Of a DNA stretch of 64,000 nucleotides, positions 7,005 to 44,505 are shown in pieces. Each line of letters opens with the position of its first letter. Position 1 is the stretch's first letter. Source of the DNA: Candidatus Nomurabacteria bacterium (GTDB taxonomy: Bacteria > Patescibacteriota > Minisyncoccia > Phycocordibacterales > SBAW01); the NCBI GenBank assembly GCA_943348815.1, contig CALQYT010000005.1:5167-69166 (forward strand). The letters run 5' to 3'. The notes beneath the pieces are model-generated. The model was not told the origin of the DNA and ran no database searches. It worked only from the letters and a program-made list of their open reading frames with translations. Both the position numbers and the translations under genes were made by a program.

Positions 7005-7297
7005 AACGTCTCGCGCGGATTAGAATCGATGACAAACCGTTTGCCCCAAAGATGTGCGAGCGTGCCTACAAGTGCAAAAATAGTAACGGGGAAATAAAAA
7101 TAGGCGGCCGTGCCGGTGGGCGCGCCCCACGCGATGTCGAGCAGGAGTGCTAGACAAACCCCAAATACAAAACGGCCGGAGAGGGTTGCTACTGCCACGC
7201 CGATTATTGCCACCGGCCACAGCGGGATAAGAAACCCGGCCGCCGCAAGCACAAACGTGGTGGCATATATCCATCGGCTGGCGGCGTTGGGTATCAT
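7001..7297 (-). CDS. mreD: Rod shape-determining protein MreD (putative)
   Basis: 98-aa polytopic membrane protein located between mreC and mrdA. Confidence 0.55.
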   Translation of the reverse strand: MIPNAASRWIYATTFVLAAAGFLIPLWPVAIIGVAVATLSGRFVFGVCLALLLDIAWGAPTGTAAYFYFPVTIFALVGTLAHLWGKRFVIDSNPRETL

Positions 7298-8019: not shown

Positions 8020-9061
8020 CGTCGTGCTCGGAGAGCATATCGCGATACAGCTCGAAGTTCTCCAAAATTACTCCGGTCCCACGCGCCACCGCCGTCAGCG
8101 GATCGTCGGCTACTACCACTGGTACCTTGAGCCACTCAGCCAATAGTGCGTCGAGCCCTTTGAGCAGCGCGCCGCCACCCGTGAGTACTATCCCTGAGCG
8201 CATAATGTCAGAAAGGATTTCGGGCGGGGTTGTTTCAAGCACCTCGCGCACCGACTCTATGAGCGTGTCGATCGACTGCGATATCGCCTCGCGCACATCG
8301 GCATCGGTAATAATAATCTCGCGCGGCAAACCGGTAATTAAATCGCGCCCGCGGATCGCCGCCTCCAAATGCCCTGCGCCTTCGGCTACCGAACCTATGG
8401 CGATTTTGACCGACTCGGCTGTTTTTTCGCCAATCAAAATTTTAAAGGCCGAACGGACATACGAAACAATATCTTGGTTGAGTTTTTCCCCGGCGATCCG
8501 CAAATTTTTAGAGCGTACAATCCCCCCGAGCGAAAGTACCGCGATGTCCGTGTTGCCGCCGCCAATATCGACGATCATCGATCCCACCGCTTCGCGTATA
8601 GGCAAACGCACTCCCAGGGCTGCGGCGATGGGCTCTTCGACAATATAAACCTCGCGCGCACCGGCGTTTTGTGCGGCGTCTTTAACCGCGCGCATCTCGA
8701 CGTTGGTAATCCCACTCGGCACCCCAATCACGACGCGCGGTCCGAGCATCTTTTTAGACATCGCTTGGGCGCGATTCATCAAGTACGAAAGCATCTCTTC
8801 GGTCGCCTCAAAGTCTGACACCACCCCATCAACCAGCGGCTTAACCGCGACCAGGTGTGCGGGCGTGCGGCCCAACATTTGCCGTGCGGCAGTCCCTACT
8901 GCAACCACCTGTCCCGTCTTTTGGTTGATCGCGACCACTGAAGGTTCGGTCACGACAATTCCCTTGCCACGCAAGTAGACCAGCGTATTGGCCGTGCCGA
9001 GGTCAACCCCGATATCGTTAGAAACCAGCGGAGAAAACTTTTTTTGAAATCTGCTCCACAT
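8006..9061 (-). CDS. mreB: Rod shape-determining actin homolog MreB
   Basis: 351 aa. IGVDLGTANTLVY phosphate-1 motif, MIVDIGGGNTD phosphate-2, and LTGGGALLKGLD. Confidence 0.9.
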   Translation of the reverse strand: MWSRFQKKFSPLVSNDIGVDLGTANTLVYLRGKGIVVTEPSVVAINQKTGQVVAVGTAARQMLGRTPAHLVAVKPLVDGVVSDFEATEEMLSYLMNRAQAMSKKMLGPRVVIGVPSGITNVEMRAVKDAAQNAGAREVYIVEEPIAAALGVRLPIREAVGSMIVDIGGGNTDIAVLSLGGIVRSKNLRIAGEKLNQDIVSYVRSAFKILIGEKTAESVKIAIGSVAEGAGHLEAAIRGRDLITGLPREIIITDADVREAISQSIDTLIESVREVLETTPPEILSDIMRSGIVLTGGGALLKGLDALLAEWLKVPVVVADDPLTAVARGTGVILENFELYRDMLSEHDDDIQ

Positions 9062-17194: not shown

Positions 17195-18208
17195 TTACCG
17201 CTTGGCGATGATAGCTTTCTTGTAGGTATCAAGATGGTCGAGTGCGATGCCGCTCCCTTTGGCAACACAATACAGCGCATCTTCGGCAACCTGTGCTTTA
17301 ACACCCGTGCGACGCAGCACCAACTCGGCAAAATTGCGCAACAGTGCGGTGCCACCGGTCATCGTAATGCCCGTGTCGATAATATCGGCGGCTAACTCCG
17401 GCGGTGTTTCTTGCAGCACATCGCGGATCGCTTTAATAATCTCGCGCAGCTCTTTACCCATCGCTTTGACAATATCGTTGGTGCGCAGCTCGACCGAGCG
17501 CGGGAGCCCAGTAATAAAGTCGCGACCACGTACGGTCATCGTCAACTCTTCCTCAACCGGCACCGCCGAGCCAATGCCAATTTTTACATCCTCGGCAGTT
17601 TTATCGCCGATGGCTAGGTTGTAGGTTTTCTTTATATAGTCGGTGATAGCGCGATCAAGTTTGTCACCTGCACACTTAACCGAGATTGAGGCAACGATAC
17701 CACCGAGCGATATCACCGCCACGTCGGCCGTACCACCACCAATATCTACCACCATCCGCCCGCGCGCTTCTTGAATAGGAATACCCGCGCCTATGGCTGC
17801 GAGCACCGACTCTTTAACCACATAGGCATTTTTAGCGCCCGCGCGTATTGCAGCCTCAACCACCGCGCGACGCTCGGTTGAGGTTACCCCAGTTGGTACC
17901 GACACCATCACCTCGGGTTTAAATAGTTGCCAACGCCCAAGCGCTTTGTGGATAAAATAGCGCAGCATCGCTTGCGTGACGCGGTAGTCGGCAATCACGC
18001 CGTCTTTGAGCGGCCGATAGGCGACAATCTCGCCGGGTGTGCGACCGATCATTTCTTTGGCCTCGGCACCCACCGCTAAAATTCGTTTGTCGATTTCTGA
18101 GATAGCGACCACCGACGGTTCGTTGAGTACCACGCCGCGACCGGGCACAAACACCAGGGTGTTGGCCGTCCCCAGGTCGATCCCTAGTTTGGGAGAGAAG
18201 AATGACAT
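17195..18208 (-). CDS. Second MreB/Mbl-like actin homolog
   Basis: LGIDLGTANTLVF, MVVDIGGGTADVAV, MTGGTALL. Start taken at MSFFSPKLGIDLG (ATG 18206-18208). Confidence 0.8.
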   Translation of the reverse strand: MSFFSPKLGIDLGTANTLVFVPGRGVVLNEPSVVAISEIDKRILAVGAEAKEMIGRTPGEIVAYRPLKDGVIADYRVTQAMLRYFIHKALGRWQLFKPEVMVSVPTGVTSTERRAVVEAAIRAGAKNAYVVKESVLAAIGAGIPIQEARGRMVVDIGGGTADVAVISLGGIVASISVKCAGDKLDRAITDYIKKTYNLAIGDKTAEDVKIGIGSAVPVEEELTMTVRGRDFITGLPRSVELRTNDIVKAMGKELREIIKAIRDVLQETPPELAADIIDTGITMTGGTALLRNFAELVLRRTGVKAQVAEDALYCVAKGSGIALDHLDTYKKAIIAKR

Positions 18209-18284
18209 CGCAGGCCCATGATACTGGAGTTCCACTACCAAAACAAACGTGCTATAACAACGGCGGTAGGTGGGAGATAGCACC

Positions 18285-18452
18285 ATGAATCGCACCGAGA
18301 TGTGTCAACATTGCGGGCAAGAAGTGCCCGTTGGTGAAGGCTGCAACGAGTCGCAGGCCCGGGAATGTGTCAACATGTCCGGTCGTCGTTCGCGAGAGGA
18401 GCGAGACGCAACCACATTCGACGACCGCGAAGCTTTGGAAGAACACCGCTAA
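18285..18452 (+). CDS. Small Cys-rich (zinc-ribbon-like) protein, 55 aa, GC3-rich cassette
   Basis: RBS GGTGGGAGA. MNRTEMCQHCGQEVPVGEGCNESQAREC shows a CxxC...C...C arrangement. Terminator CGCCGCGC...GCGCGG-TTTTTATTTT at 18463-18493. Confidence 0.4.
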   Translation: MNRTEMCQHCGQEVPVGEGCNESQARECVNMSGRRSREERDATTFDDREALEEHR

Positions 18453-21594: not shown

Positions 21595-22287
21595 ATGAAA
21601 GTACAAAAAATAATAGCGGGTGCCGCAGCGGCAACCGCACTTATGTTCGGCACGGCAGTATTTGCACAGAGCGCTCCCACCGTGGGTGTCACGGGCTCCT
21701 TCCCCTCAAGTGTGCAAGCGGGCACGCAGGATACGGCCGTGGCGTTTATTACGCTCACTGCATCAGGTGCACCAACCTCGACAGTAAGTGTCACTTCGCT
21801 CCCCATCGTGTTTGCAAACACGGGGGTCGTGTCGGACTGCCGGTTGCATAGCAACGGGGCAGAGCTCGGCGGTGGACTTAACACGGGCAGCAATGTGTTG
21901 CTTACCCCGGGCGTGGTTAACCAAATCATGCTCGACGCACCGCTCCAGCTAACGACTGGCGCTCCGACGACGCAGCTTACGTTGCGCTGCGACATCTCAG
22001 CTGCTACACCGGTAGGCTACGTGCTTGGCATTGCGTTTGCGCCGGGTAATATCGTCGCTCAAACCGGCACCAGCACTGCAATAATTCCTTTCGGCCTTGG
22101 TATCCCGAGCGGAGCACCGTTTGCGGGTGAGTTTACGATCCTGGGCGGCACGGGCACTCCGACTCCTACACCGGGTACTCCAAACACCGGTGCTGGTGGC
22201 AACGCAGCCATGATCCTTACCTTGCTCACCCTTGCGGGTGTGGTAGCAATCGGCGGCATGGTGCGCTTGGTCGCTCGACGCGCTTAA
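21595..22287 (+). CDS. Secreted Thr/Gly-rich protein with C-terminal sorting-signal-like anchor
   Basis: Signal peptide. C-terminus ...TPGTPNTGAGGNAAMILTLLTLAGVVAIGGMVRLVARRA is a motif, then a hydrophobic span, then a basic tail, like sortase substrates. Confidence 0.5.
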   Translation: MKVQKIIAGAAAATALMFGTAVFAQSAPTVGVTGSFPSSVQAGTQDTAVAFITLTASGAPTSTVSVTSLPIVFANTGVVSDCRLHSNGAELGGGLNTGSNVLLTPGVVNQIMLDAPLQLTTGAPTTQLTLRCDISAATPVGYVLGIAFAPGNIVAQTGTSTAIIPFGLGIPSGAPFAGEFTILGGTGTPTPTPGTPNTGAGGNAAMILTLLTLAGVVAIGGMVRLVARRA

Positions 22288-22302
22288 GGTCTTGGTCTAC
22301 AC

Positions 22303-22336
22303 AAAACCCCCGGCCGTTATGGCCGGGGGTTTTGTC
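22303..22336. terminator. Bidirectional intrinsic terminator AAACCCCCGGCC...GGCCGGGGGTTTT
   Basis: 10-bp perfect stem flanked by A-tract and T-tract, between convergent genes. Confidence 0.65.
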
Positions 22337-22345
22337 TATGACTAA

Positions 22346-29904: not shown

Positions 29905-30888
29905 TTAAACCACCCGAATTTGGGTAAAGTTCTTCCCTTCCAAACCTTTAATCGTTACCGGCTCCCAGGCTGCCTGTGCCTTTTCGAGTTGTGAGGGTGA
30001 AAGGATGGTCTCGATAAAACTATCCTCACGCTTTTGAAGCGCCCCGACCCCTACCCAAAATTTAGCGACCGATGTTTTAGTAGTCCCGATAGGGATAACA
30101 TTCGGCTCGAAGAAAACCGTAAACGCACTTATATTTTCAGTCGTGTACGAAGGTCGCACGCGAGTCTGCTTTTCTTGCAGGTTGTAATAGGCGTAATGCA
30201 TCAGGTCCACCTTTTCGCGCCAAAGCGGATCTTTGCTTTGCTCAGGGGTTACCTTTACGTTCATTTCTATAGAGCGTATTGCGGCGTCTGACAATGGTTG
30301 AGGGTTTGCTGCGCGAACCTGCTTTAACTTTTCCATCTCTGCGGCGAGTCCTGCCTCAAAAACTTCAGTGCTTTCGTACTGTGATCTCTCCAAAAAGACC
30401 TCGAACTTTAAATTTGCGGGAGCATACGGAGTAATAAAAGTCAGCAACTTAGCAAAACTTTGCTGGTAAGCGTCCAGATCGGCCTGGGGAATATTGTTCA
30501 TCTTACTAATGACCACCTCATCGACCCAAAAGGTAAAAGTCACTCCCTGCGGGTACAGCGCACACACCGGTTTAAGCCATCGCACGATATACATGATCGT
30601 AAAGAGTTCGGCCCAATCGGCTTCGGGCGTCTCCTCCAAGCGCCAGAGCTTGTATCCGCCAAAAGGCCAGGAAATTTTTATAGGTTCTTTGTCGGCAATA
30701 TTTTTCTCGAGAGCCGTTCTGATGATTTTTTGATTTTTTTCGGGTACCGAGAATTTTCTAAACTTTTTCGACATCAGCGCGGTAAAAATAGCCTGAGCCA
30801 TCTCGGCGTTGTCTTTGGGTTTTGTACTAGACGGCAAAGACGACTTGAGAGCATCAAGTTGAGAAGAGATGTACTCTTGTGCATTCAT
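29905..30888 (-). CDS. Hypothetical protein (327 aa)
   Basis: Long ORF with backbone-like codon usage. No recognisable motif. Confidence 0.45.
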   Translation of the reverse strand: MNAQEYISSQLDALKSSLPSSTKPKDNAEMAQAIFTALMSKKFRKFSVPEKNQKIIRTALEKNIADKEPIKISWPFGGYKLWRLEETPEADWAELFTIMYIVRWLKPVCALYPQGVTFTFWVDEVVISKMNNIPQADLDAYQQSFAKLLTFITPYAPANLKFEVFLERSQYESTEVFEAGLAAEMEKLKQVRAANPQPLSDAAIRSIEMNVKVTPEQSKDPLWREKVDLMHYAYYNLQEKQTRVRPSYTTENISAFTVFFEPNVIPIGTTKTSVAKFWVGVGALQKREDSFIETILSPSQLEKAQAAWEPVTIKGLEGKNFTQIRVV

Positions 30889-30893
30889 AGAGA

Positions 30894-30966
30894 GATGCGG
30901 GTAGGAATTGAACCTACGTCTCCTGCCTTGCGGGCAGGCGCCTGAATCCGTCTCGGCGACCGCATC
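30894..30966 (-). tRNA. tRNA-like element (degenerate; possible tRNA-Cys GCA with C33)
   Basis: Minus-strand 73-nt GATGCGG...GTAGGTTCAATTCCTACCCGCATC has a perfect 7-bp acceptor stem and a canonical T-arm. The D-arm pairs poorly. The best anticodon loop CCGCAAG lacks U33. Confidence 0.3.
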
Positions 30967-31703: not shown

Positions 31704-31955
31704 ATGACTACAAAAGGAGTTGCCGGAGGCACGATACACACGATGCCCGCGGATTGGCGGAAGGCGCTTAATGCTACCCCGGCCGCCAAAGCGGTATGGG
31801 ATGACATTACCCCACTCGCGCGCAATGAGTGGATATGCTGGGTTACCTCCGGCAAAAAAGCCGAGACACGTGACATACGAATCAAAAAAGGACTCTCCAA
31901 ACTAAAAAGCGGCATGCGCCGCCCGTGTTGCTGGGCAGGCTGCCCGCATCGTTAA
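31704..31955 (+). CDS. YdeI/OmpD-associated family protein
   Basis: 83 aa. MPADWRKALNATPAAKAVWDDITPLARNEWICWVTSGKKAETRDIRIKK matches the YdeI_or_OmpD-associated pattern. Confidence 0.55.
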   Translation: MTTKGVAGGTIHTMPADWRKALNATPAAKAVWDDITPLARNEWICWVTSGKKAETRDIRIKKGLSKLKSGMRRPCCWAGCPHR

Positions 31956-32296
31956 GAACGTTTTAGTTTGCCCACGAGATAGTGAATAACTGAGGCAAGG
32001 ATGGTCCAGTAGACAAGCAAGTAGATACCGACAAATGGAGGAGGCGGGTCTTCTTTCAAAAAATCAACTTGGGGCGCCGCTATGGGCCCGAGCAAAACAA
32101 TTTTGATCGGCAAAATAATTGTGGACACCGCGCGCTTCCAGGCTAGTGGTGAGTCGCTACCGGTCGTCAGTACAGAATCGGGCGCTTGAGGAAACCCTCG
32201 AACGCCGGTTGTCCCCAAAAGTGAGGTCGTAATAAAAAGGAAGGCGAAGCCGAAGATAATAAAGAAAATAACAAATTTGGTTCTTGAAATAGCCAT
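31952..32296 (-). CDS. Hypothetical membrane protein
   Basis: Three hydrophobic segments. No other motif. Confidence 0.35.
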   Translation of the reverse strand: MAISRTKFVIFFIIFGFAFLFITTSLLGTTGVRGFPQAPDSVLTTGSDSPLAWKRAVSTIILPIKIVLLGPIAAPQVDFLKEDPPPPFVGIYLLVYWTILASVIHYLVGKLKRS

Positions 32297-32696: not shown

Positions 32697-32812
32697 GTAG
32701 GGATTGTAACAAAATAATCTCTTACGTACCTTGTTTTAATTTAGGTGAGTTCTTGCTATGTGGGGACTCGAAAAAATAGATAAAAAACGGTATAGTGCTG
32801 ATTGTTCGACAT

Positions 32813-33074
32813 TCCGCGGTAGCTCAATGGTAGAGCAGCTCCCTGTCAGCAGGCAGCCTTTCGCCGCAAGGCGGATTGAATAACTTTGGGATAACGGTGG
32901 ACCCCTCGCCAAACCGGCAGGGCAACACCGTGGGAACCTCGCTATAGTCGCGGGGGCGCCGTAGAGACTAGATACCAAAGCACCCCTCGTGGGTGGTGAT
33001 ATAGTCCACTCCCGCAAGAAACTGTGGGGCGCAGTGTAAGGAGTTGGTTCCAGGTTCGAGTCCTGGCCGCGGAG
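32813..33074 (+). tRNA. tRNA (probably Thr, anticodon UGU or GGU) interrupted by an approximately 190-nt group I-like intron in the anticodon loop
   Basis: 5' exon TCCGCGG-TA-GCTC-AATGGTA-GAGC-A-GCTCC-CT (acceptor, D-arm, anticodon stem). 3' exon TGTAA-GGAGT-TGGTT-CCAGG-TTCGAGT-CCTGG-CCGCGGA-G pairs perfectly with the 5' half. The 5' exon ends in U and the insert ends in G. Confidence 0.6.
32845..33034 (+). ncRNA. Putative group I (IC3-like) self-splicing intron inside the tRNA
   Basis: Contains GCCGTAGAGACTAGATACCAAAGCACCCC, closely resembling the conserved P7/P3 core (GUAGAGACUAGACGGCACCC) of the proteobacterial tRNA group I introns. Confidence 0.5.
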
Positions 33075-33081
33075 CAAAAAT

Positions 33082-33103
33082 ATCAAGGTTCGACCTTGAT
33101 GGG
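33082..33103. repeat. REP-like hairpin ATCAAGG-TTCGA-CCTTGAT
   Basis: 7-bp stem, 5-nt loop. Copies also at 34659-34680 and, inverted, at 38982-39002. Related copies at 59391-59457. Confidence 0.6.
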
Positions 33104-33193
33104 TTAACTAGACATTTTCATTATTTTATGTTTTATTAGTGCCGGCGCAGTTCGCCACAGCACAACCCTCTAAAACTGAGGAAGGGCATAGCT

Positions 33194-34090
33194 ATGACCA
33201 GCCGAGTCATGTTTTCTACCGCGGTGAGGACTCAATTGCCTCACATGAATAGAATTCACCACGCGCAATACCGGCGGCGACTCCTCGCCTCCGGGATCAG
33301 CGACGACCAGGGCAACCCGACTGAGCTTGCATATTTCTTAGACGAACTTTACGGCCCTTGTCTGCAGGACGTGGAGTTTTTCTGCGGGCAAAGCAACCTC
33401 TTCCGCATGATCGCGGCAGGTAAAGTTGTCTGGGAGATTCAAAAGCACTTCCCTGCAATTAAGACGCGAGTCGTCTCTGCCCTGGCTGCACTCATAGCTA
33501 AAGGCAGCATCCATCGTCGCAAATCCCCGGAGGACATGCGGCCGTTCTTCCAACGTAGGGATACGTTGTCTGACCTGCTCGACGAAGCGACGATGCTGAT
33601 CCACGCGAGCGAACAGATCAACTCGGTACCCGACGGCCAAAAGAGTGCCGCATTAAGTGGACTCCGGATCGATCCTCATCAGTTTCGGATAGTCCGGGCC
33701 GAATGGGCGCGGATCTTCTCCACACTTAAGGGGGACGATCCCGTCGATTACCGGGTGGTAGGCAATCACGCGGTACCACTACGTTGCGCGATCCTCGCCG
33801 GTACGCACTGGATCAATACCTTCGACCGGTACGGTGTGCTGCAAGACCTGTCTATCTGTAGCGTGCTCTATGAGAGGAGCGTAGATATCCAGGCTTACGA
33901 TCCAAACGACCTCGCCGTCGTCGGCTGGAACTTCCCAATGTCGGTAATGGACCAGGAATGGGACATGACCTCAGAAGGCTACCCGCTGACGTTGGTCACG
34001 AGAGCAGAAATGGAGCGCCACGCCCCCCATCTGCTCGAACTTCCTTTCGTCAAAAAACAATTCGCCGGCTTTCAACGGCCAAGCGAGTGA
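33194..34090 (+). CDS. Hypothetical protein (298 aa), first gene of GC3-rich island next to the tRNA
   Basis: GAGGAAGGG RBS. GC3-rich. Terminator GCCCGCG...CGCGGGC-TTTTTAATTTAA at 34112-34150. Confidence 0.45.
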   Translation: MTSRVMFSTAVRTQLPHMNRIHHAQYRRRLLASGISDDQGNPTELAYFLDELYGPCLQDVEFFCGQSNLFRMIAAGKVVWEIQKHFPAIKTRVVSALAALIAKGSIHRRKSPEDMRPFFQRRDTLSDLLDEATMLIHASEQINSVPDGQKSAALSGLRIDPHQFRIVRAEWARIFSTLKGDDPVDYRVVGNHAVPLRCAILAGTHWINTFDRYGVLQDLSICSVLYERSVDIQAYDPNDLAVVGWNFPMSVMDQEWDMTSEGYPLTLVTRAEMERHAPHLLELPFVKKQFAGFQRPSE

Positions 34091-34239
34091 ATTAACGGTC
34101 GCTAAAACCGACCAACCTTCAAGAGCCCGCGCCAAAACGCGGGCTTTTTAATTTAAGAAAATAAATGTTGTTTTTTTGACTCTCCTAGAGTAGTCTCTCT
34201 GCCAGAAGAGCTGCATACCGCAGCGCAGACGAGGGTGCC

Positions 34240-34530
34240 ATGATTCTGAGCCAAGACCGACTGAATGCGATCACGTTGTTGTTGATGTTGGGGACGACAA
34301 CCCACGAAGATTTTAATTCGCCAACAAACACGCCGATCTACCGCCTCGGCAGACTGGCGGCCGAGTTGGCCGAACTGCAGAACCGGCTCCAAGAGACCGC
34401 TGCGGAAGTCAGCAAACATCTTGCCGAGCGGATTGGCGAAAAAGCACCGACCGCTGAGGAGCTTGAGGCCTTCGTTCCACTTCTAGCCGAACAGATGCGA
34501 GACCTCAAACCTGCGCGGCGATCGTACTAA
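34240..34530 (+). CDS. Hypothetical small protein (96 aa), predicted helical/coiled-coil
   Basis: GAGGGTG RBS. AAELAELQNRLQETAAEVSKHLAERIG. Followed by GCGGCTTTTTAATTTAAATTT and a second terminator at 34617-34650. Confidence 0.4.
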   Translation: MILSQDRLNAITLLLMLGTTTHEDFNSPTNTPIYRLGRLAAELAELQNRLQETAAEVSKHLAERIGEKAPTAEELEAFVPLLAEQMRDLKPARRSY

Positions 34531-34658
34531 GCTTCCCTACCCGGGCGGCTTTTTAATTTAAATTTATGTTCGTGGAACATGTATTAGTTCCCGCCCCAAA
34601 ACAAAAACAGAAGCCGTCGGGTGTACTCGGCGGCTTTTTTGTTTAATGAAGACAAAAA

Positions 34659-34680
34659 ATCAAGGTTCGACCTTGATGGG
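34659..34680. repeat. REP-like hairpin ATCAAGG-TTCGA-CCTTGAT (copy 2)
   Basis: Identical to the copy at 33082. Confidence 0.6.
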
Positions 34681-34766
34681 CTTGATTTTTATTACTCAAA
34701 GGGTAGCTTTGTGTCAGAGGTTCGACTGCCCTCATAAAGCAGTCAATGGATCGCAGGGGGATCGCG

Positions 34767-35159
34767 ATGGCTGAGCGTTTCTTTGTCATCGCCGCAAAAG
34801 AAGTGGCGTTGGCACAGGGGGCAACCCCAAACAATAAGTTCATCGCCGCGTCGGGGGCTGACCCTGCTACGGCGGCGAGGTTTACTCGAATCGCCTTCGT
34901 CGGCGGAGAACCAACCATGGTGACCGTCCAATGGTACATCCAAACCTTTGTTGCCAAAGCAGACGGCACCTTAGTTGCCGATGAAGAATATCGGGCGCGC
35001 GATGCGACTCTCGGTGTTCTGCTTAAAATCGGACTGACTGACTCACTGGTGCTGATCGAGGAATGGCTATACGCTGCCTTCGAAAGATACTGCAAGGCAG
35101 CAGGCATTGAAGTTACCAAGCACTACTTCGACGGGACACTCTCACAAGCAACTTCCTGA
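34767..35159 (+). CDS. Hypothetical protein (130 aa)
   Basis: AGGGGGATCGCG RBS before MAERFFVIAAKEV. GC3-rich. Confidence 0.4.
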   Translation: MAERFFVIAAKEVALAQGATPNNKFIAASGADPATAARFTRIAFVGGEPTMVTVQWYIQTFVAKADGTLVADEEYRARDATLGVLLKIGLTDSLVLIEEWLYAAFERYCKAAGIEVTKHYFDGTLSQATS

Positions 35160-35188
35160 CTGCCCTAGTGCCAAAGGACGCTTCAGTC

Positions 35189-35467
35189 ATGCCCAAACGT
35201 AACCGTTTCGACCGCATGTCGCCCACCAAGTTTTTCGCCAAGGAAAGACTGATGAGGTTGGGGATCTCCTCCAACACTGCCGGACGAGCGAGCAAGGGGG
35301 CGCACGAGTACGCCTATGTGCGCGGCAATTTTCCCACCATGAGGAGATTCGCGGCGCATTACAACACCCGCGACTCGTTCGTCCCGACCCCTTCCAACTT
35401 TGGCAAAGCTTCTTGGGACGCACTCGTCCTCGCCATCAAGTCGGCCAGACTGCCTTTCGAAGACTAA
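35189..35467 (+). CDS. Hypothetical small protein (92 aa)
   Basis: AAAGGACG RBS before MPKRNRFDRMSPTKFF. Terminator GCGAGCGGC-TTTTTTAATTTAG at 35468-35495. Confidence 0.4.
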   Translation: MPKRNRFDRMSPTKFFAKERLMRLGISSNTAGRASKGAHEYAYVRGNFPTMRRFAAHYNTRDSFVPTPSNFGKASWDALVLAIKSARLPFED

Positions 35468-35587
35468 CCAGCTGCTCCCGCGAGCGGCTTTTTTAATTTA
35501 GTAAATTACCGACTCCCCTACTTGACGTTGGGTTTAATATATGTTAAAGGGTTATCACCCTATACCAAGCACGGAAGGAGTTGGCCC

Positions 35588-35965
35588 ATGGCCAAAGTAC
35601 ACAAAGGCACTGCCAAACAGAAGGCCAAAAAGAAACGGCGGATCACCATCCGCGGACCACGGCGCAACCGTACCCCTGAGGAAGAAGTCGCGATGCACGA
35701 CATGCAAGCGCTGATCTTCACGGATTACCTTCGGCGCAAAGGGGCCCACGGCCCCCGCGAGCATCGCGAGCTCGCCGAGGACGCGGACCTGAGCTTTCGG
35801 ACGGTCCAGGGCATCGTGGAAGGAACCACACTCTGGTTCCGAGCCGAAACGGAGCGCAAGCTCCACAAAGCGCTCGGTGTCCGGCGCGACCTCACTGACA
35901 CGGTGACCGGCAAGCGCATCGACCCGCGGAGATATTACAACAAGATTCCCCGCAAGTTCTTCTAA
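35588..35965 (+). CDS. Basic DNA-binding protein with XRE-like HTH (126 aa)
   Basis: GGAAGGAG RBS. N-terminus MAKVHKGTAKQKAKKKRRITIRGPRRNR is Lys/Arg-rich. ELAEDADLSFRTVQGIVEGTTLWFRAETERKLHKALGV resembles an HTH_3 domain. Terminator GGCCGCCGACACCCATCGGCGGC-TTTTTG at 35985-36015. Confidence 0.45.
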   Translation: MAKVHKGTAKQKAKKKRRITIRGPRRNRTPEEEVAMHDMQALIFTDYLRRKGAHGPREHRELAEDADLSFRTVQGIVEGTTLWFRAETERKLHKALGVRRDLTDTVTGKRIDPRRYYNKIPRKFF

Positions 35966-36149: not shown

Positions 36150-37607
36150 ATGGCTACTACTAACGGCAAGGGATTAAAAGATTTTTTGGAGATCCCGTAC
36201 GATGAATTAGAGACTCGCAATCTTAAAGCAAAAGAGCGGCAGGAAAAACTTTCTCCCCAAGCGCTGCAAAAAGAGTACGTCGCGTATTTACAAAAAGAAA
36301 AACGGATCAAAGCGGTGACGCTGTGCTTTACCGACATCGAGGGGCGCCTGCACATGCTCGACTACGACAAAAAGTTTTTGCTCGACTCGTTGCAAAATTT
36401 AACCTTCGACGGCTCCTCCATCCGCGGATTTACGCCGCAGCATGAAAGTGACCTGCGGCTCGAGGTCGACTGGGGTTCGGCGCGCTTTATGCCCGCCGAT
36501 ATTTTTGGCCCCGGCAAAGTTATCTTTTTTGCCTCGGTACTTAACCGCGACCGCACCCCCTATCACAGCGACTTCCGCGGGATGCTTAAAGCGCACACGC
36601 TTGCGTTGGCTAAAAAAGAAGGCCTCGATGCCTACGCCGCGCCCGAAATAGAGGGCTTTTTGGTAGACGGGGTCAACAGCGAACAACAATTTGAGGTCAC
36701 TAAAGGCTTTACGCTTATTTCCTCCGGCGGCTACTATCACTCGCTCCCGCAAGACAAACTCCGTATCTTTATCGACACCTGCGCCGAGGCTCAGCGCGCA
36801 ATGGGGTTTAAAAACGAAAAGGACCACCCCGAAGTGGCGCCCTCGCAGTTTGAGATGAACTTCTCTTACGCACCGGTGGTGCGTGCCGCCGACAACGTAC
36901 AACTCTACAAACTCATTTGTAGGCAAGTTGCGCGCAATATGGGGCTCACGGCAACCTTCTTGCCCAAGCCCTTTACCGGGATCAACGGCTCGGGGATGCA
37001 CACCAACTTTTCGCTCTCTAAAAAAGGCCCGGCCGGGCAGGCCAAAAATATCTTCCACGACCCCAAAGGCCAAGATGGCCTCTCCAAAATCGCGTGGGAC
37101 ATGATCTCACGGCTCTTAAACCATGCACCCGAAATTTGCCTCGTGCTCAACTCATCGGTCAATAGCTACCGCCGGCTCGACCCGCATTTTGAGGCACCCA
37201 ACCAGATTAAAGTCTCCCCTATCGACCGCGGTTCGATGATCCGCATCCCCGTCGGCAACGAGCGCACGGCGCGCATCGAGTTGCGCTCGGTCGCACCCGA
37301 CGCCAACCCCTACCTCGTGCTCTACACCATGTTGCGTGTCGGGCTTGAAGGGCAAAAATTAAAGAAAGACGAAAGCAAACGCGAGCGTCTGCGGTTTTTG
37401 CCCGACAACATCCAAGACGCGATAGCGCTGATGAAGAGCAGTAAGTTTATGGATGCGGTGTTGGGCGAGGAAAGCAAGCAGAAGTTTATTCAGTATAAGC
37501 AAGCCGCGGCGGATCGATCGCCGCGCGCACTCGGCGCGACTATCAAACGCACCGAGATTATTTATCATCACGAAGTAACGAACCAACTTCTATGGAACAG
37601 CTTTTAG
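36150..37607 (+). CDS. glnA: Glutamine synthetase
   Basis: 485 aa. FDGSSIRGF (beta-grasp) and a catalytic domain with a GSGMHTNFSL-type motif (INGSGMHTNFSLS). Confidence 0.85.
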   Translation: MATTNGKGLKDFLEIPYDELETRNLKAKERQEKLSPQALQKEYVAYLQKEKRIKAVTLCFTDIEGRLHMLDYDKKFLLDSLQNLTFDGSSIRGFTPQHESDLRLEVDWGSARFMPADIFGPGKVIFFASVLNRDRTPYHSDFRGMLKAHTLALAKKEGLDAYAAPEIEGFLVDGVNSEQQFEVTKGFTLISSGGYYHSLPQDKLRIFIDTCAEAQRAMGFKNEKDHPEVAPSQFEMNFSYAPVVRAADNVQLYKLICRQVARNMGLTATFLPKPFTGINGSGMHTNFSLSKKGPAGQAKNIFHDPKGQDGLSKIAWDMISRLLNHAPEICLVLNSSVNSYRRLDPHFEAPNQIKVSPIDRGSMIRIPVGNERTARIELRSVAPDANPYLVLYTMLRVGLEGQKLKKDESKRERLRFLPDNIQDAIALMKSSKFMDAVLGEESKQKFIQYKQAAADRSPRALGATIKRTEIIYHHEVTNQLLWNSF

Positions 37608-38953
37608 GCGCGGCGCAACGCCGCATGTTTTTGCTCCACTCGCTCTTTTGGATAGCGCTCGGGTGCGCGGTCGGTTGGCTGGCAACCTACTTTGCCGGCG
37701 CCTCGGCGGGCGATGCGGGGAGCGCCATCTCCAGCGGCGACACCGCGTGGATGCTTGCCTCCTCGGCATTAGTCATGATTATGACCCCGGCGGTGGGCTT
37801 CTTTTACGGCGGCATGGTGTCGTCTAAAAATGTCGTCTCGGTCATTAAACAATCGCTGATTATTCTTGCGCTCATTTCGGTGCAGTGGGTGGTGTTTGGC
37901 TACTCGCTCGCGTTTGGCCCGGACACGGGGCTCGGTATTATTGGCAATCTCAGCTTCTTTGGGCTCCATGGCGTCGGCTTTGCACCCGACCCCAACTACG
38001 CCGCAACGATCCCCGCGCTCGTGTTTATGATCTTCCAGGCAATGTTTGCGATCATCACGCCAGCACTCATCATTGGCGCCTTTGTTGAGCGCATTAAATT
38101 TAAAACCCTCGTACTCTTCACCTTATTGTGGGCAACGCTGGTGTATGACCCGGTCGCGCACTGGGTGTGGTCACCGATGGGATGGCTCCACTCGCTCGGC
38201 GCCTTGGATTTTGCGGGCGGCACCGTGGTGCACATGACGGCCGGATTCTCGGCGCTCGCGGCCGCGATGTTGGTAGGCAAACGCTTGCAAGGCAGCAGCC
38301 CCGCGCAGAGCGCGGGCAACGTCCCGTTTGTTATTTTGGGCGCCGCCCTCTTGTGGTTTGGCTGGTTTGGCTTTAATGCCGGCTCGGCCCTGGCGGCCGG
38401 TGCGCTCGCCGCAAGTGCCTTTGTGGTTACTAACACGGCGGCTGCAGCAGCCGCGCTTACGTGGGTCGCCCTTTCGTGGGCAGAAAATCGCAAACCCTCC
38501 GCCATGGCCGCCGCGATAGGTGCGGTGTGCGGACTTGTGGCCATAACGCCCGCCTCAGGCTATGTTGGCCCGGTCGCGGCAATTGCTATCGGTATTCTGG
38601 GCGGCGCCGTCACCTACTTGGCGGTCTACTTCCGCAGCCGGCGAATACGCATCGACGACTCGCTCGACGTTTGGGCGGGCCACGGCATTGGCGGACTTAC
38701 GGGCGCCATACTCACCGGTGTCTTTGCCGAAAAAGCAATCAACGCCGCGGGCAACAACGGACTCTTGTTTGGCGATCCGCACCAACTCTGGGTGCAGATT
38801 ATTGCCGTCGCCGCGGTTGGCGTCTACTCATTTGTCGCCACGTGGATCATACTCAAAGTAATTGCAATCTACGTCCCCTTGCGTGTTGAGTCGCACGAAG
38901 AAGAAGCGGGCCTCGACCTCGCCGTCCACGGCGAACCTGCCTATCGTAACTAA
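37592..38953 (+). CDS. amtB: Ammonium transporter Amt
   Basis: 453 aa, about 11 TM segments. DTAWMLASSALVMIMTPAVGFFYGGMV and DFAGGTVVHMTAG signatures. Confidence 0.9.
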   Translation: MEQLLGAAQRRMFLLHSLFWIALGCAVGWLATYFAGASAGDAGSAISSGDTAWMLASSALVMIMTPAVGFFYGGMVSSKNVVSVIKQSLIILALISVQWVVFGYSLAFGPDTGLGIIGNLSFFGLHGVGFAPDPNYAATIPALVFMIFQAMFAIITPALIIGAFVERIKFKTLVLFTLLWATLVYDPVAHWVWSPMGWLHSLGALDFAGGTVVHMTAGFSALAAAMLVGKRLQGSSPAQSAGNVPFVILGAALLWFGWFGFNAGSALAAGALAASAFVVTNTAAAAAALTWVALSWAENRKPSAMAAAIGAVCGLVAITPASGYVGPVAAIAIGILGGAVTYLAVYFRSRRIRIDDSLDVWAGHGIGGLTGAILTGVFAEKAINAAGNNGLLFGDPHQLWVQIIAVAAVGVYSFVATWIILKVIAIYVPLRVESHEEEAGLDLAVHGEPAYRN

Positions 38954-39855: not shown

Positions 39856-40677
39856 ATGGCAACGCTCACTATTGGCACGCGCGGGAGCAAGCTTGCGCTG
39901 GTGCAAACCGATCTTACGGCACAAGCGCTTAAACGTGCCGACCCGACGCTCGAAATTAAAATCCGGGTTATAGAAACACACGGCGACCAAAACCAAAACC
40001 CCATCCCGCTCGACACGATTGGCAAGGGATGGTTTACCAAAGAAATTGAAGAGGGGCTGCTAAAAAAAGAAATAGATCTTGCGGTGCATAGCCTTAAAGA
40101 TTTAGCCGAGGAGATGCCCGCAGAACTTACGATCGCCGCTTATTTGCCGCGCGAGGACGCGCGGGACGTGCTGATTACCAAACAGGGCGAGTCGTTAGAA
40201 GAACTAAAACAAGGTGCGATCATTGGCACCGACAGCACGCGCCGATCGGTGCAAATTAAAGCACTCCGCCCCGACTTGGTAGTGCAAAGCCTGCGCGGCA
40301 ATGTACCGACCCGCGTACAAAAATTGCAAACCGAACAGTATGACGCCATTATTTTGGCGGCTGCCGGACTCAAACGTTTGGGGATGGCAGACAAAATCAC
40401 CCGCTACTTTGAGCCATACGAAATGACGCCGGCACCGGGCCAAGGAATACTCGCCGTGCAAACCCGCGCCGACACATCGTCAGGCGATCTGATTAGGCGT
40501 ATCAACGATAAAAAGGCGGCCACTGCGGCAGAGCTAGAGCGCACCTTTTCGGCCAAACACGGTGGCGGCTGCAAATCGCCAACGGGCGCCTACGCGTGGT
40601 GCGAGGGTTCAAAATGGTACTTGCTTGGCATGACCGAGCAGAATGGTAAGATCATGCGCGAAACTCATGAGATTTGA
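39856..40677 (+). CDS. hemC: Porphobilinogen deaminase (hydroxymethylbilane synthase)
   Basis: MATLTIGTRGSKLALVQTD..., the canonical HemC N-terminus. Dipyrromethane cofactor Cys near the C-terminus (GGCKSP). Confidence 0.85.
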   Translation: MATLTIGTRGSKLALVQTDLTAQALKRADPTLEIKIRVIETHGDQNQNPIPLDTIGKGWFTKEIEEGLLKKEIDLAVHSLKDLAEEMPAELTIAAYLPREDARDVLITKQGESLEELKQGAIIGTDSTRRSVQIKALRPDLVVQSLRGNVPTRVQKLQTEQYDAIILAAAGLKRLGMADKITRYFEPYEMTPAPGQGILAVQTRADTSSGDLIRRINDKKAATAAELERTFSAKHGGGCKSPTGAYAWCEGSKWYLLGMTEQNGKIMRETHEI

Positions 40678-41197
40678 GGTGCGCATAACTACTTCCCCGC
40701 TTTCTGTGCGCCTACCAAAACTCGAGCGCTACGATTTGATTGTCTTCACCAGCAAAAACGCTCAAAAGTTTTTTACTTTGGCGCTACATAAATATAAAAC
40801 AAAAATACCCAAGCATGCCCGCGTAGTACGCGTTGGTCCAAGAGCAGAACTTCTCAAACTCGAATTAAAAAATAAAAAGATTTTATTCCCCCGCTCCGAC
40901 CTCGCGCCGTTTGCTATCATCCGCCAACTCCGCGCACGCGGTGCTCAAGTGCGCGTACTGCCGCTCTACACTACCGACGCCGTTTTACTTACCAAAAAAC
41001 AAAAAGAATCTTTACTTGAGGGCGCTTACCGCGAGCTCTATTTTAAAAGCCCCTCAGGAGTCACCGGTTTTTTGCAGCAGTTTAACCGCATACAACAAAA
41101 ACAACTGCTCAGTATCCCCGCACTCTGTATCGGAACTACCACCGCAAGCGCCGCCAAAGCTGCGGGGTTTAAAAAAGTCTCAATACGGTACTATTAG
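40643..41197 (+). CDS. hemD: Uroporphyrinogen-III synthase (short)
   Basis: YDLIVFTSKNAQKFF (HemD signature). Overlaps the hemC 3' end. 184 aa is shorter than usual. Confidence 0.55.
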   Translation: MVRSCAKLMRFEVRITTSPLSVRLPKLERYDLIVFTSKNAQKFFTLALHKYKTKIPKHARVVRVGPRAELLKLELKNKKILFPRSDLAPFAIIRQLRARGAQVRVLPLYTTDAVLLTKKQKESLLEGAYRELYFKSPSGVTGFLQQFNRIQQKQLLSIPALCIGTTTASAAKAAGFKKVSIRYY

Positions 41198-41200
41198 GCT

Positions 41201-41836
41201 ATGCCCTACCACAGCTACATCTTTTTTGACGGCATCCCCGGCGCACCCAAAAAAGCGAAAGAAGCTTTTGCCAAACGCATCGCTAAAGAAAAGCGCGTGC
41301 GTACACGCGCCTACGCAACACTTGGGTTTAAACGGGGCACGCACTTTATGCTCCACTGCAACACCAAAGCGCCCGATATTATTCAAGAATTTATCCGCGA
41401 CCTCTTGCACACCGAGCTAGGAAAGTATTTGCGCATCAGCTACACCCTGCTGGGCATGACGCGCTCATCGCAATACAACCCCAAAAAACCACCGGCACAA
41501 AGCGCGCCCGAAGCACCGCATCGCTATCTAGTGGTCTACCCCTTTACTAAAACGGTCGAGTGGCACCTACTGCCCTACGATGAGCGGCGCGCGATGATGA
41601 AGGCGCATGTCGAGGTTGGGCGCGCCTACGCCAGCAGTATTTCGCAACTTCTACTCTACTCGTTTGGGATCGACGACCACGAGTTTATTGTTTCGTACCA
41701 AATGGACGACCTTGATGAGTTTCAACAACTCGTGATGGAGCTGCGCGGTACCGAAGGCCGTCGCTATACCAAAAACGACACGCCAATATTTACCTGCACC
41801 CATATGCCGGTTGCCGAGGCGCTTGAGATGCTATGA
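41201..41836 (+). CDS. hemQ: Chlorite-dismutase-family coproheme decarboxylase (HemQ-like)
   Basis: RYLVVYPFTKTVEWHLLPYDERRAMMKAHVEVGR and the C-terminal ferredoxin-like half are typical of the Cld/HemQ family. Confidence 0.6.
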   Translation: MPYHSYIFFDGIPGAPKKAKEAFAKRIAKEKRVRTRAYATLGFKRGTHFMLHCNTKAPDIIQEFIRDLLHTELGKYLRISYTLLGMTRSSQYNPKKPPAQSAPEAPHRYLVVYPFTKTVEWHLLPYDERRAMMKAHVEVGRAYASSISQLLLYSFGIDDHEFIVSYQMDDLDEFQQLVMELRGTEGRRYTKNDTPIFTCTHMPVAEALEML

Positions 41837-42819
41837 GTAATTTGTTTTTGCGCGCCTGCCGCGGCGAGCGCGTTGAGCGGGTGCCGGTGTGGTTTATGCG
41901 CCAGGCGGGACGCTCACTGCCCCGCTATCGCGAGCTACGCAAAACCTACGGCGTACTTGAGCTAACCCAAACTCCCGCATTGGCGGCGGAGGTGAGTATC
42001 GAGCCCATAGAGCGCCTTGGGGTTGATGCGGCAATACTCTTTGCCGACATTATGCTCTTGCCCATGGCGATGGGCGTCGACGTACAAATAGTAGAGGGTG
42101 TGGGCCCCGTGATAGCCAAACCGGGGCCGGAGTTGCAGCCATTTGACCCGAGCCGTGTGGCGTTTTTGGCAGAGACCATAAAAATTTTGCGCTCCAAACT
42201 TGCGGTGCCAGTAATTGGGTTTAGCGGCGCGCCGTTTACGCTCGCCAGTTATTTAATCGAGGGTAAGCCGAGCCGCACCTGGCTCACCACAAAGAAGTTT
42301 ATGCTCGAGCGCCCGGCCGAGTGGGACCTCCTGATGCAAAAGCTTTCGGACGGGGTCATTGAGTACCTAAAATTACAAATTGCCGCGGGCGCGCAAGCGG
42401 TGCAGTTGTTTGATAGTTGGGTGGGATGTCTCTCGCCCGTACAGTATCGCGCGCAAGTGCTACCGCATGTGCAGAAAATTTTTAAAGCGCTCGGCCCCAC
42501 GGTTCCGCGCTTACACTTTGGCACACACACGGCCGGCATGCTCGAAGATTTTGCCAATGTCGAGTGCGAGGTTATTGGGGTTGACTGGCGCATAAGCCTT
42601 GCCGAGGCACGCAAGCGCATTGGCAATAAAACTTTGCAAGGCAACCTCGACCCAACACTGCTGCTTGGCCCGTGGGAGGCACTAACCCAAACGGTCGATC
42701 ATATGCTGGCCGAAATAGACTCAAAACAAAAGTACATTTTTAATCTTGGCCACGGCATGCTGCCCGAAGCCAATGATGCGGTGGTTAAAAAACTGGTTGA
42801 CTATGTCCACACCAAATAA
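41833..42819 (+). CDS. hemE: Uroporphyrinogen decarboxylase
   Basis: MSNLFLRACRGERVERVPVWFMRQAGRSLPRYRELRK, the canonical HemE N-terminus. ATGCTATGA overlap with hemQ. Confidence 0.9.
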   Translation: MSNLFLRACRGERVERVPVWFMRQAGRSLPRYRELRKTYGVLELTQTPALAAEVSIEPIERLGVDAAILFADIMLLPMAMGVDVQIVEGVGPVIAKPGPELQPFDPSRVAFLAETIKILRSKLAVPVIGFSGAPFTLASYLIEGKPSRTWLTTKKFMLERPAEWDLLMQKLSDGVIEYLKLQIAAGAQAVQLFDSWVGCLSPVQYRAQVLPHVQKIFKALGPTVPRLHFGTHTAGMLEDFANVECEVIGVDWRISLAEARKRIGNKTLQGNLDPTLLLGPWEALTQTVDHMLAEIDSKQKYIFNLGHGMLPEANDAVVKKLVDYVHTK

Positions 42820-43684
42820 AACGGAGGGAAAAGTAGGGGTGGTACTGATGACCTACGGCTCGGCCACCACGGCCGAACATGTAGCCGAGTACTTTGCCCA
42901 TATATATAAGAGTCCGTCGCTCGAGCTTATTGCTGACTTTGAAAACCGCTACCGGTTGGTAGGCCGCTCGCCCTTGGTTGAAATTACCCAAAAGCAAGCC
43001 GCACTCCTACAAGAAAAACTAGGGACAAATTTTGTGGTGCGCGCTGGCATGCGACACTCAGCACCCTTTATTGCCGATGCGGTAGCTGAGTGTCGCGCCG
43101 AGGGTGCCACCGTGCTGCGCGGCATCATACTCTCGCCGCAATACTCGCCCGTTATTATGCGCGGATACGAAACCGAGTTTGCCACGGCGGCGCAACAAGG
43201 GGGATTTACGGATTTTAAAATCGCGCCACCGTGGCCTACCCAGCCGCGGTTTGTCGAGTTGCTCGCGCAGCGTATTGAGCGCGCACTGACTCAACCTATG
43301 CCGGTGATATTTACCACCCACAGTTTGCCCAAAAAAGTAATTGACCAAGACCCAAGCTACCTCAGCCAACTGCAAGCAACCATCGACGCGGTGCGCGCAC
43401 TACTCCCGGCCGACCTCAAATGGTGTGCAGCGTACCAAAGCGCCGGCCACACGCCCGAAGAGTGGCTCAAGCCCGACCTGGTTGATGTTTTGCGAGAACT
43501 GCGCGGCAAAAAATCATCGGTTTTGATCGTCCCCATCCAATTCCTCTCCGACCATTTAGAAGTCCTCTACGACCTCGACATCGCCGCCCGCGCCCAGTGC
43601 GAGGAGTTTGGGATTGCGTATAATCGTATTGAGTTACCCAACACTCACCCTCTTTTTATTTCCGCATTATCCTCTTTAATTTGA
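42803..43684 (+). CDS. hemH: Ferrochelatase (probably coproporphyrin ferrochelatase)
   Basis: KVGVVLMTYGSATTAEHVAEYFAHIYK N-terminus, HSLP-type motif (IFTTHSLPKK), and C-terminal QFLSDHLEVLYDLD. Confidence 0.8.
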   Translation: MSTPNKTEGKVGVVLMTYGSATTAEHVAEYFAHIYKSPSLELIADFENRYRLVGRSPLVEITQKQAALLQEKLGTNFVVRAGMRHSAPFIADAVAECRAEGATVLRGIILSPQYSPVIMRGYETEFATAAQQGGFTDFKIAPPWPTQPRFVELLAQRIERALTQPMPVIFTTHSLPKKVIDQDPSYLSQLQATIDAVRALLPADLKWCAAYQSAGHTPEEWLKPDLVDVLRELRGKKSSVLIVPIQFLSDHLEVLYDLDIAARAQCEEFGIAYNRIELPNTHPLFISALSSLI

Positions 43685-43821: not shown

Positions 43822-44505
43822 ATGAAACGTGCAATGATGGCAGCCCTCGGGCTGCTTGCGATGGCACCCGTGGCGCAAGCCGCGGATTTGCCAAGTCCTC
43901 CGTGGAAAGCGCCGGCGTTCTCGGCAGTCCCCGGAAACTTCAGTGGCCTCACCGTCGGCATCATCGGTGCTGGCGCGTGGGCGAGCGGCCCGACCAGTGG
44001 CGCGTTCGGTGGCATCCAGGTTGGCTACAATTGGCAAAACGGCCCCTGGGTGGTCGGCGTGAATACCGACATCCTGCTGGGCAGCCAGAAGCACTCGACC
44101 GGCGTCAACATGGCCGGCGTGAGCTTTGACTTCACGGACCGGGCGAACTATCTCGGTTCGGTTACCGCCAAACTGGGCGTCACTCCGGCGTCGCAATGGC
44201 TGTTCTACGGCGAAATCGGCGGGGCCTATAGCACCGTCTATCACAAGATTGGCCTCAGCCCGATCGCCGGCACTGTCTCGGCCAAGTCCAACAAGGTCGG
44301 ACTGACCGCAGGCGGGGGCGTCGTCTATGCTCTGACGCCGAATCTGCAACTCGAAGCCAAGTACAATGCGATCTGGTTCTCGGGTGATAGCCCCACCTAC
44401 GTCTACGGTCCGGTATCCTTCGTCGTCAGTTATCCGAAGGTCACCGAGCACGTGGCGAAGGTCGGCATCAACTACCGTTTCGACAACACCGCCTGGCGCT
44501 TCTAG
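43822..44505 (+). CDS. Omp25/Omp31-family outer-membrane beta-barrel protein (porin-family OMP), intact
   Basis: Signal peptide MKRAMMAALGLLAMAPVAQA. Alternating-hydrophobic strands. C-terminal ...VGINYRF with terminal Phe. GGGAGAAATTGAA RBS. GC3-rich. Terminator 44540-44575. Confidence 0.7.
   Translation: MKRAMMAALGLLAMAPVAQAADLPSPPWKAPAFSAVPGNFSGLTVGIIGAGAWASGPTSGAFGGIQVGYNWQNGPWVVGVNTDILLGSQKHSTGVNMAGVSFDFTDRANYLGSVTAKLGVTPASQWLFYGEIGGAYSTVYHKIGLSPIAGTVSAKSNKVGLTAGGGVVYALTPNLQLEAKYNAIWFSGDSPTYVYGPVSFVVSYPKVTEHVAKVGINYRFDNTAWRF

Follow-up and report, generated by a model that had tools for sequence, protein, structure and literature searches.

A predicted tRNA-Asn(GUU) gene split at position 35/36 by a compact 190-nt group I intron

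We analyzed a 64-kb stretch of DNA (64,000 nt, hereafter the window) and conclude that positions 32813-33074 of its forward strand very probably encode a precursor tRNA-Asn(GUU), with a 190-nt group I intron between U35 and U36 of the anticodon loop. The element is a further member of a published and experimentally proven class of introns (Nakagawa et al., 2026, mSystems, PMC13011429). The original prediction had described a tRNA gene whose anticodon loop is interrupted by a group I intron some 190 nt long, and that description is borne out by the alignment to the Rfam model RF00028, by helices P1-P9 and by covariation across homologues. Its choice of threonine (anticodon UGU or GGU) is revised here, as the splice site lies two bases further 3′, at 35/36 and not 33/34, which yields Asn(GUU).

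Results

The tRNA gene lies in two halves on the + strand of the window, and the gap between them, read directly from the sequence, is exactly 190 nt. The 5′ exon (32813-32846) was delimited by the sequence, by ARAGORN in intron mode and by exon parsing. It contains the acceptor strand UCCGCGG, U8 and A9, a D-arm (GCUC-AAUGGUA-GAGC), A26 and the anticodon stem strand GCUCC, and it ends with the loop bases C32, U33, G34 and U35. The 3′ exon (33037-33074, + strand), delimited by the same three means, begins with U36, A37 and A38 and continues with the stem strand GGAGU, the variable loop UGGUU, a T-arm (CCAGG-UUCGAGU-CCUGG), the acceptor strand CCGCGGA and the discriminator base G73; as read from the sequence, CCA is not encoded at the 3′ end of the tRNA (33074). 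Taken together, the two exons form a perfect cloverleaf. A promoter-like site (TCGAAA, a 17-nt spacer and TATAGT; 32768-32796, + strand) is located about 17 nt before the first base of the tRNA. A consensus scan found one such site where 0.8 were expected, no better than chance, and a promoter role for it is only suggestive.

The intron proper (32847-33036, + strand) is defined by RF00028, by its helices, by covariation and by a covariance model described below. It contains no ORF, and its last base, G33036, is the omega G. In P1 (32843-32856), C32-U33-G34-U35 of the exon and C32847 of the intron pair with G32852-G-C-A-G32856, so that GCAG (32853-32856) forms the internal guide sequence and the wobble pair U35 (32846)·G32853 marks the 5′ splice site. 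The P2 hairpin (32860-32875) is closed by a GCAA tetraloop of the GNRA type (32866-32869). P3 (32884-32889 with 32975-32980) encloses P4 (32894-32899 with 32926-32931), P5/P5a (32903-32910 with 32916-32922, placed by the RF00028 alignment, the drawn helices and covariation) and P6 (32937-32942 with 32950-32955). The catalytic core (32961-33006) consists of J6/7 and the 5′ strand of P7 (GUAGAGACUAGA, with P7 at 32966-32970), P8 (32981-32985 with 32991-32995), and J8/7 with the 3′ strand of P7 (GAUAUAGUC, with P7 at 33002-33006), J6/7, J8/7 and both P7 strands being assigned from the RF00028 alignment. The P9 hairpin (33011-33028) carries a GAAA-containing loop. All of these elements are on the + strand. 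The RF00028 alignment and covariation thus recover the hallmarks of a group I core, namely the P3-P9 helices, the guanosine pocket in P7, J6/7 and J8/7. The motifs quoted in the original prediction can both be located (GTAGAGACTAGA, 32961-32972; GCACCCC, 32980-32986), and its observation that the intron follows a U and ends in G holds at 35/36 as well (U35 and G33036).

When P1-P9 were drawn from the window sequence alone, 52 of 52 pairs were canonical, and every helix that the original prediction had proposed to fold could be formed. Independently, the thermodynamic minimum free energy fold of 32838-33044 recovers P1, P2, P4, P5, P6, P7, P9 and the anticodon stem, with an unremarkable fold z-score of -1.47. 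P10 amounts to one base pair at most, which suggests that the anticodon stem, in place of P10, probably keeps the exons together. Of the compensatory P1/P10 pairing anticipated at the outset, the P1 part is seen in the fifth pair of that helix, but P10 cannot exceed a single pair.

The group I fold of the insert is strongly supported by covariation across homologues. For this analysis, the window copy and 37 homologues (n = 38) were aligned with MAFFT (alignment A1), and the window structure was projected onto the alignment. Standard pairs occupy 90.8% of cells, compared with 36-43% when the pairing partners are slid by 1-3 columns, and changes on both sides of a pair are seen in 31/52 pairs, compared with 15-21/52 in the slid controls. 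The covariation score is 0.461 vs. 0.08-0.13 in the slid controls, and none of 500 shuffles reached the observed value. P2, P3, P6, P8 and P9 each contribute four to six compensating pairs, including 6/6 pairs in P2 and 5/6 in each of P3, P6 and P9, while both P3 and P4 are paired in 100% of cases. The four exon pairs of P1 are invariant (CG, UA, GC and UG, each in 38/38 sequences) because they sit in an anticodon loop; its fifth pair, formed by the first intron base and its partner, does covary (AU in 25, CG in 7 and GC in 6). The J6/7, P7 and J8/7 columns are also invariant, but this is partly forced by the pattern used in the homologue search. Since both P7 strands were fixed by that pattern, their invariance is uninformative either way. 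A covariance model built from A1 (R1), whose seed includes the window copy, gives one match only on the 64 kb, at 32838-33044 with 184.5 bits. Relatives outside the seed reach 145-202 bits, a range shared by the members of the seed.

Standard annotation tools overlook this gene. ARAGORN with default settings reports nothing at 32813-33074, its sole report in the window being a tRNA-Cys at 30892-30966. Rfam at the gathering threshold has no match at the tRNA/intron locus, and an Rfam scan of the whole 64-kb window by E-value missed it as well. With introns allowed, ARAGORN reports a split tRNA at 32813-33075, named tRNA-Asp (gtc) i(37,176). The original prediction had proposed RF00028 as a check, and a focused Rfam scan of 32700-33200 (a 501-nt search) does give a match (31.4 bits, E = 3e-6), but one below the Rfam gathering score of 50. 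The alignment nevertheless spans model positions 1-253 and includes P3, P4-P5, P6, J6/7-P7, P8, J8/7-P7′ and P9. For tRNA introns, a cutoff of 18-20 bits has been used on the grounds that bacterial sequences are absent from the Rfam seed (Williams, 2020, bioRxiv 10.1101/2020.01.27.920355).

The sequence offers two candidate introns of equal length. Removal of 32845-33034 (33/34) would give the loop CUUGUAA and tRNA-Thr(UGU), and removal of 32847-33036 (35/36) would give CUGUUAA and tRNA-Asn(GUU). The first of these was the choice of the original prediction, and it has some points in its favor: U33 (32844) precedes the site, G33034 ends the alternative intron, and ARAGORN, which accepts both spliced products, names the 33/34 version tRNA-Thr(tgt). 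Among relatives, ARAGORN and tFind likewise often give Thr, the two-base shift making them call Thr(UGU) at 33/34 frequently (PMC13011429); in our material, ARAGORN miscalls the split tRNA-Asn of one related contig (L157, described below) as Thr. The structure of the intron argues for the other site. The only good P1 helix places the U·G wobble at U35, and the base opposite U33 is an A in 38/38 homologues. Among the relatives listed, the G that would end a 33/34 intron is replaced by A or U in 6/38 seed and 11/42 non-seed sequences (17/80), whereas the G that ends the 35/36 intron is kept in 80/80. The exons point the same way, as the window tRNA has U1-A72 and G73, unlike the intron-less tRNA-Thr in related loci, of which 45/47 have G1-C72 and U73; U1-A72 with G73 occurs in one of the two intron-less tRNA-Asn found there. 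G73 and the anticodon are identity elements of tRNA-Asn, as established for E. coli tRNAs. We relied on acceptor and discriminator features for the isotype in place of overall similarity, as comparison of the whole spliced tRNA with intron-less tRNAs of related loci had no resolving power (best scores to Phe, Thr and Lys, 0.75-0.80, with no separation). Finally, relatives of the intron have been shown to self-splice in vitro, with the junction sequenced and located at 35/36, and a G-to-C mutant of the omega G blocked exon ligation; the introns tested were those of the tRNA-Asn of GCA_016700035.1 and the tRNA-Asp of GCA_001029755.1 (PMC13011429). With the wobble, the alternative terminal G and the acceptor and discriminator bases all at odds with it, a tRNA-Thr(UGU) split at 33/34 is highly improbable. 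The site, the CUGUUAA loop and the Asn rather than Thr features of the exons all place the window copy in the 35/36 tRNA-Asn class.

The tRNA-Asp (gtc) i(37,176) call of ARAGORN with the -i option represents another reading, by which a protein endonuclease would, as happens in archaea, excise a 176-nt intron following position 37 of a tRNA-Asp(GUC). At that boundary, the 5′ splice site is not preceded by a U and the intron does not end in G. Group I core sequence would stay behind within the "exon", and the boundary clashes with the CUGU|...G|UAA junction that the family conserves. Moreover, genuine tRNA-Asp hosts within the family have G1-C72 and a CAC 3′ junction. We therefore regard the likelihood of this reading as practically negligible and retain tRNA-Asn(GUU) with the 35/36 intron.

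Homologues were collected with the DNA pattern AGACTA...GATATAGTC...GGTTCRA, searched in one genome per GTDB species, which returned at least 120 loci, most of them in Patescibacteria MAGs. Among the 120 genome loci listed, at least 91 score above 140 bits with R1, again mostly from Patescibacteria MAGs. The family of tRNA-Asn, -Asp and -Tyr introns scores 145-217 bits, and other tRNA introns caught by the pattern score 25-111 bits. Parsing of the exons in the listed matches gave the junction CUGU|...G|UAA with U1-A72 and G73 for Asn(GUU), and CUGU|...G|CAC with G1-C72 and G73 for Asp(GUC). A later set of listed matches added CUGU|...G|AAA for Tyr(GUA), likewise split at 35/36; the tRNA-Tyr(GUA) hosts are L030, L044, L063, L072, L074, L083, L084, L090, L100, L103, L108, L110, L117, L120 and L124. 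The family is limited to tRNAs with GUN anticodons because the guide GCAG reads C32-U33-G34-U35, and Asn, Asp and Tyr were the ones seen. Among the matches listed, the introns nearest to the window copy are L106 and L053, both from Patescibacteria MAGs and at most ~76% identical. The core of the Azoarcus intron presumably shares the GUAGAGACUAGA stretch with the window intron, in agreement with the match to the proteobacterial core drawn in the original prediction. Among the matches listed, however, the closest relatives are Patescibacteria tRNA-Asn/Asp/Tyr introns and not the classical proteobacterial tRNA introns. The window itself contains no rRNA over its 64 kb. A protein encoded next to the locus (29905-30888) shares 77% identity with one from Candidatus Kaiserbacteria, and its other named homologues are in Paceibacterota, Nomurabacteria and the "Patescibacteria group". 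The host is likely to be a Kaiserbacteria-like Patescibacterium, although the heme-pathway genes and the outer-membrane-protein gene noted below are unusual for that phylum.

Several relatives are of interest in their own right. On an ENA ERZ1292627 contig (L157, 8930-9244), whose flanking 327-aa protein is 81% identical to that of the window, a tRNA-Asn is likewise interrupted at 35/36 and shows the P1 design of the window copy; its intron is 241 nt long and scores just 73 bits with R1. This low score indicates that the intron core at one site can differ markedly between related genomes. In the three loci with homologues of the flanking 327-aa protein (L155-L157), synteny with the window does not go beyond the pair made up of the tRNA-Cys and this gene. 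Twenty-five IMG/VR viral contigs (L002-L026) also matched the group I/tRNA pattern, and many of these matches are intron-split tRNA genes. In L002, L005, L012 and L021, for example, the loop reads CU|UCUAA, consistent with tRNA-Arg(UCU) split at 33/34. Their scores of just 25-82 bits against the Asn/Asp model of the family place these contigs in a different lineage. In some family members (L049, L065, L079, L082, L096, L113 and L132), hundreds of bases separate the 5′ exon from the intron core downstream of it; L049, for instance, has its exon at 7014-7047 and a core beginning near 7394. This spacing points to large insertions near P1/P2, possibly homing-endonuclease genes of the HNH type such as those reported in tRNA-Asn introns (PMC13011429).

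Discussion

The nearest known counterpart of the window element is the 35/36 intron class of Patescibacteria. In a sample of 95 complete Patescibacteria genomes, Nakagawa et al. found that 15 tRNA-Asn and 3 tRNA-Asp genes carry an intron at 35/36, a site enriched in this group (19/28 cases), and assigned 25 of the 28 introns at 35/36 to subgroup IA, compared with 81% of tRNA introns in IC (PMC13011429). Earlier, Williams had raised the number of intron-split bacterial tRNA types from 4 to 21 (Williams, 2020, 10.1101/2020.01.27.920355); going by the account in Nakagawa et al. (PMC13011429), one of these types, Asn.4Ug, is occasionally scored as Thr.2Ug. With this class (PMC13011429; Asn.4Ug) the window copy shares the host tRNA, the site, the CUGU|...G|UAA junction and the GCAG guide. 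It aligns end to end with such introns in A1, its 190 nt fall within the published length range of 184-894 nt, it has no homing endonuclease, and published members were likewise missed by standard tools or miscalled Thr(UGU). The window copy differs in being a short form that lacks the receptor motifs of P5 and P8, in having GCAA and not GAAA in L2, and in being at most ~76% identical to the nearest listed loci. In addition, the published material consists of complete genomes, whereas the window copy is on a draft contig. The classical IC3 introns, namely those of Azoarcus tRNA-Ile(CAU), Agrobacterium tRNA-Arg(CCU), cyanobacterial tRNA-Leu(UAA) and tRNA-fMet, are also small ribozymes without an ORF that interrupt an anticodon loop and use the two-step, guanosine-initiated chemistry. 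Unlike the window copy, they are inserted at 36/37, 34/35 or 33/34 and in other host tRNAs. Published work also sets them apart, as IC, from the introns at 35/36, most of which were assigned to IA (PMC13011429). The window copy is thus one more example, compact and receptor-less, of a self-splicing class, and it opens no new question. Its practical value is as a case for annotation: the gene is unseen by default ARAGORN and by Rfam at the gathering threshold, and intron-aware tools tend toward a Thr or Asp label. A genome would then seem to lack tRNA-Asn, and estimates of its completeness would go wrong.

From the relatives tested in vitro and the established chemistry of group I introns, we infer that the window copy would splice itself. 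Following transcription, the intron would fold into its P1-P9 core, with the guide GCAG (32853-32856) pairing to C32-U33-G34-U35 and the U35·G wobble sitting at the cleavage site. An exogenous guanosine bound in P7 would attack after U35 (32846). G33036 would then enter the same P7 pocket, and the freed 3′-OH of U35 would attack after G33036, joining the exons as ...CUGU + UAA... with an anticodon loop of CUGUUAA. The expected ligated junction reads ...GCUCCCUGU|UAAGGAGU..., and RNase P, 3′ trimming and CCA addition would complete the tRNA.

An alternative reading is that the intron has decayed and no longer splices itself, in which case the tRNA would be a pseudogene or a protein helper would be needed. 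The sub-threshold RF00028 score (31.4 vs. 50) and the fold z-score of just -1.47 could be read in this way. So could the nine departures from consensus positions that at least 85% of the family conserve and the absence of the tetraloop-receptor motifs of most relatives. Most relatives have GAAA in L2 (exact or with one extra flanking base) and, as judged by a loose pattern search, an 11-nt-receptor-like CCUAAG...UAUGG in P8 and P5. The window copy has a short P8, GCAA in L2 and neither receptor motif, from which it follows that its tertiary packing differs from that of the majority. Other members with a short P8 (L046, L053, L066 and L089), as well as L068, share this short form and have GGAA or GUAA in L2. 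This pattern fits the usual swap between docking of GAAA into a receptor and docking of a GNRA loop onto a helix, and lends weak support to a functional fold; a GNRA loop in L2 is what receptor-less docking would lead one to expect. Against decay, all family-invariant columns are kept, none of the 52 modelled pairs is non-canonical, and the exons form a perfect cloverleaf. The nine deviations lie in peripheral P5, P8 and linkers, with none in the core, and several are common to short-form members. On this evidence a decayed intron is very unlikely, and self-splicing remains our preferred reading for the window copy.

Splicing of this kind needs free guanosine or GTP and could therefore act as an RNA-level gate on the supply of tRNA-Asn, a speculation also raised by the authors of the published class (PMC13011429). 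Within a reduced genome, the split gene may be the only one for tRNA-Asn; this content was judged from the 64-kb window only, and a second, intact tRNA-Asn is possible elsewhere in the genome. If such a gate were real, the receptor-less 190-nt short form would represent its pared-down variant, adapted to this function. Another, separate idea concerns the orphan genes downstream, which between the palindromes at 33082 and 34659 could possibly constitute a mobile cassette that uses the palindromes and not an integrase. We consider these ideas, a gate on the supply of tRNA-Asn and, separately, a mobile cassette formed by the palindrome-bracketed orphan block, unlikely.

The palindrome next to the tRNA gene (33082-33100, + strand; ATCAAGGTTCGACCTTGAT, 19 nt) belongs to a set of six related copies in the window, and it has no part in the intron mechanism. 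Exact copies of the 19-mer occur at 33082, 34659 and 38982, where none would be expected by chance in the 64-kb window, and variants occur at 16634, 59392 and 59437, the last two 45 nt apart. Their consensus is (A/G)(T/C)CAAGGTYCGACCTTG(A/G)(T/C), and no T run follows the 33082-33100 palindrome on the + strand. The REP hairpin noted in the original prediction is accordingly a real, repeated palindrome for which "REP-like" is a fair description. The palindromes are candidates for a REP-like element or a protein-binding site.

Five orphan ORFs (33194-35965, + strand) start 120 nt downstream of the tRNA 3′ end, and none of them has a Pfam or PHROG match. They had been described as a GC3-rich island, and their GC3 is indeed raised (0.59-0.73 vs. 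0.42-0.57 for most upstream genes), but the rise extends into the adjacent housekeeping genes glnA (0.67) and amt (0.71), and one upstream gene also reaches 0.67. The first orphan ORF has four homologues among 5.8 billion proteins, two of them amid prophage-like or defence-like genes with no adjoining intron-bearing tRNA. A position immediately downstream of a tRNA gene is shared with islands that target such genes. Unlike these, the window has no integrase with the block next to the tRNA, no second copy of the 20-nt tRNA 3′ end, even with three mismatches allowed, and no phage or Pfam matches among the five ORFs. The block is possibly an accessory region. Integration at the tRNA, for which the original prediction had pointed to tRNA genes as hotspots, is not supported, the GC3 rise not being specific to the island either.

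Other features of the window were noted in passing. A match to Rfam His_leader at 22205-22338 (+ strand; 36.1 bits vs. a gathering score of 49, E = 0.041) is probably due to chance. Conserved DNA at 31743-31956 was considered as a non-coding RNA and rejected, as it is a + strand protein gene whose product, judged from its translation, looks YdeI-like. Genes for heme synthesis are present at 39856-43684 (also L001) and encode porphobilinogen deaminase, HEM4, a chlorite-dismutase-like (HemQ-type) protein, URO-D and ferrochelatase. Just upstream of them (36150-38953) are the genes for glutamine synthetase and an ammonium transporter. Heme genes are not usually seen in a Patescibacteria-like genome, and horizontal transfer, a chimeric contig or an atypical lineage may account for them. 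An ORF at 43822-44505 (+ strand) has outer-membrane beta-barrel and OmpA-like Pfam matches and a proteobacterial-looking signal peptide, a surprising combination, given that the lineage is generally considered to have no outer membrane. Two full-length MreB paralogues are encoded less than 10 kb apart (8006-9061 and 17195-18295, both on the - strand), and a class I (archaeal-type) lysyl-tRNA synthetase is encoded at 1825-3345 (- strand).
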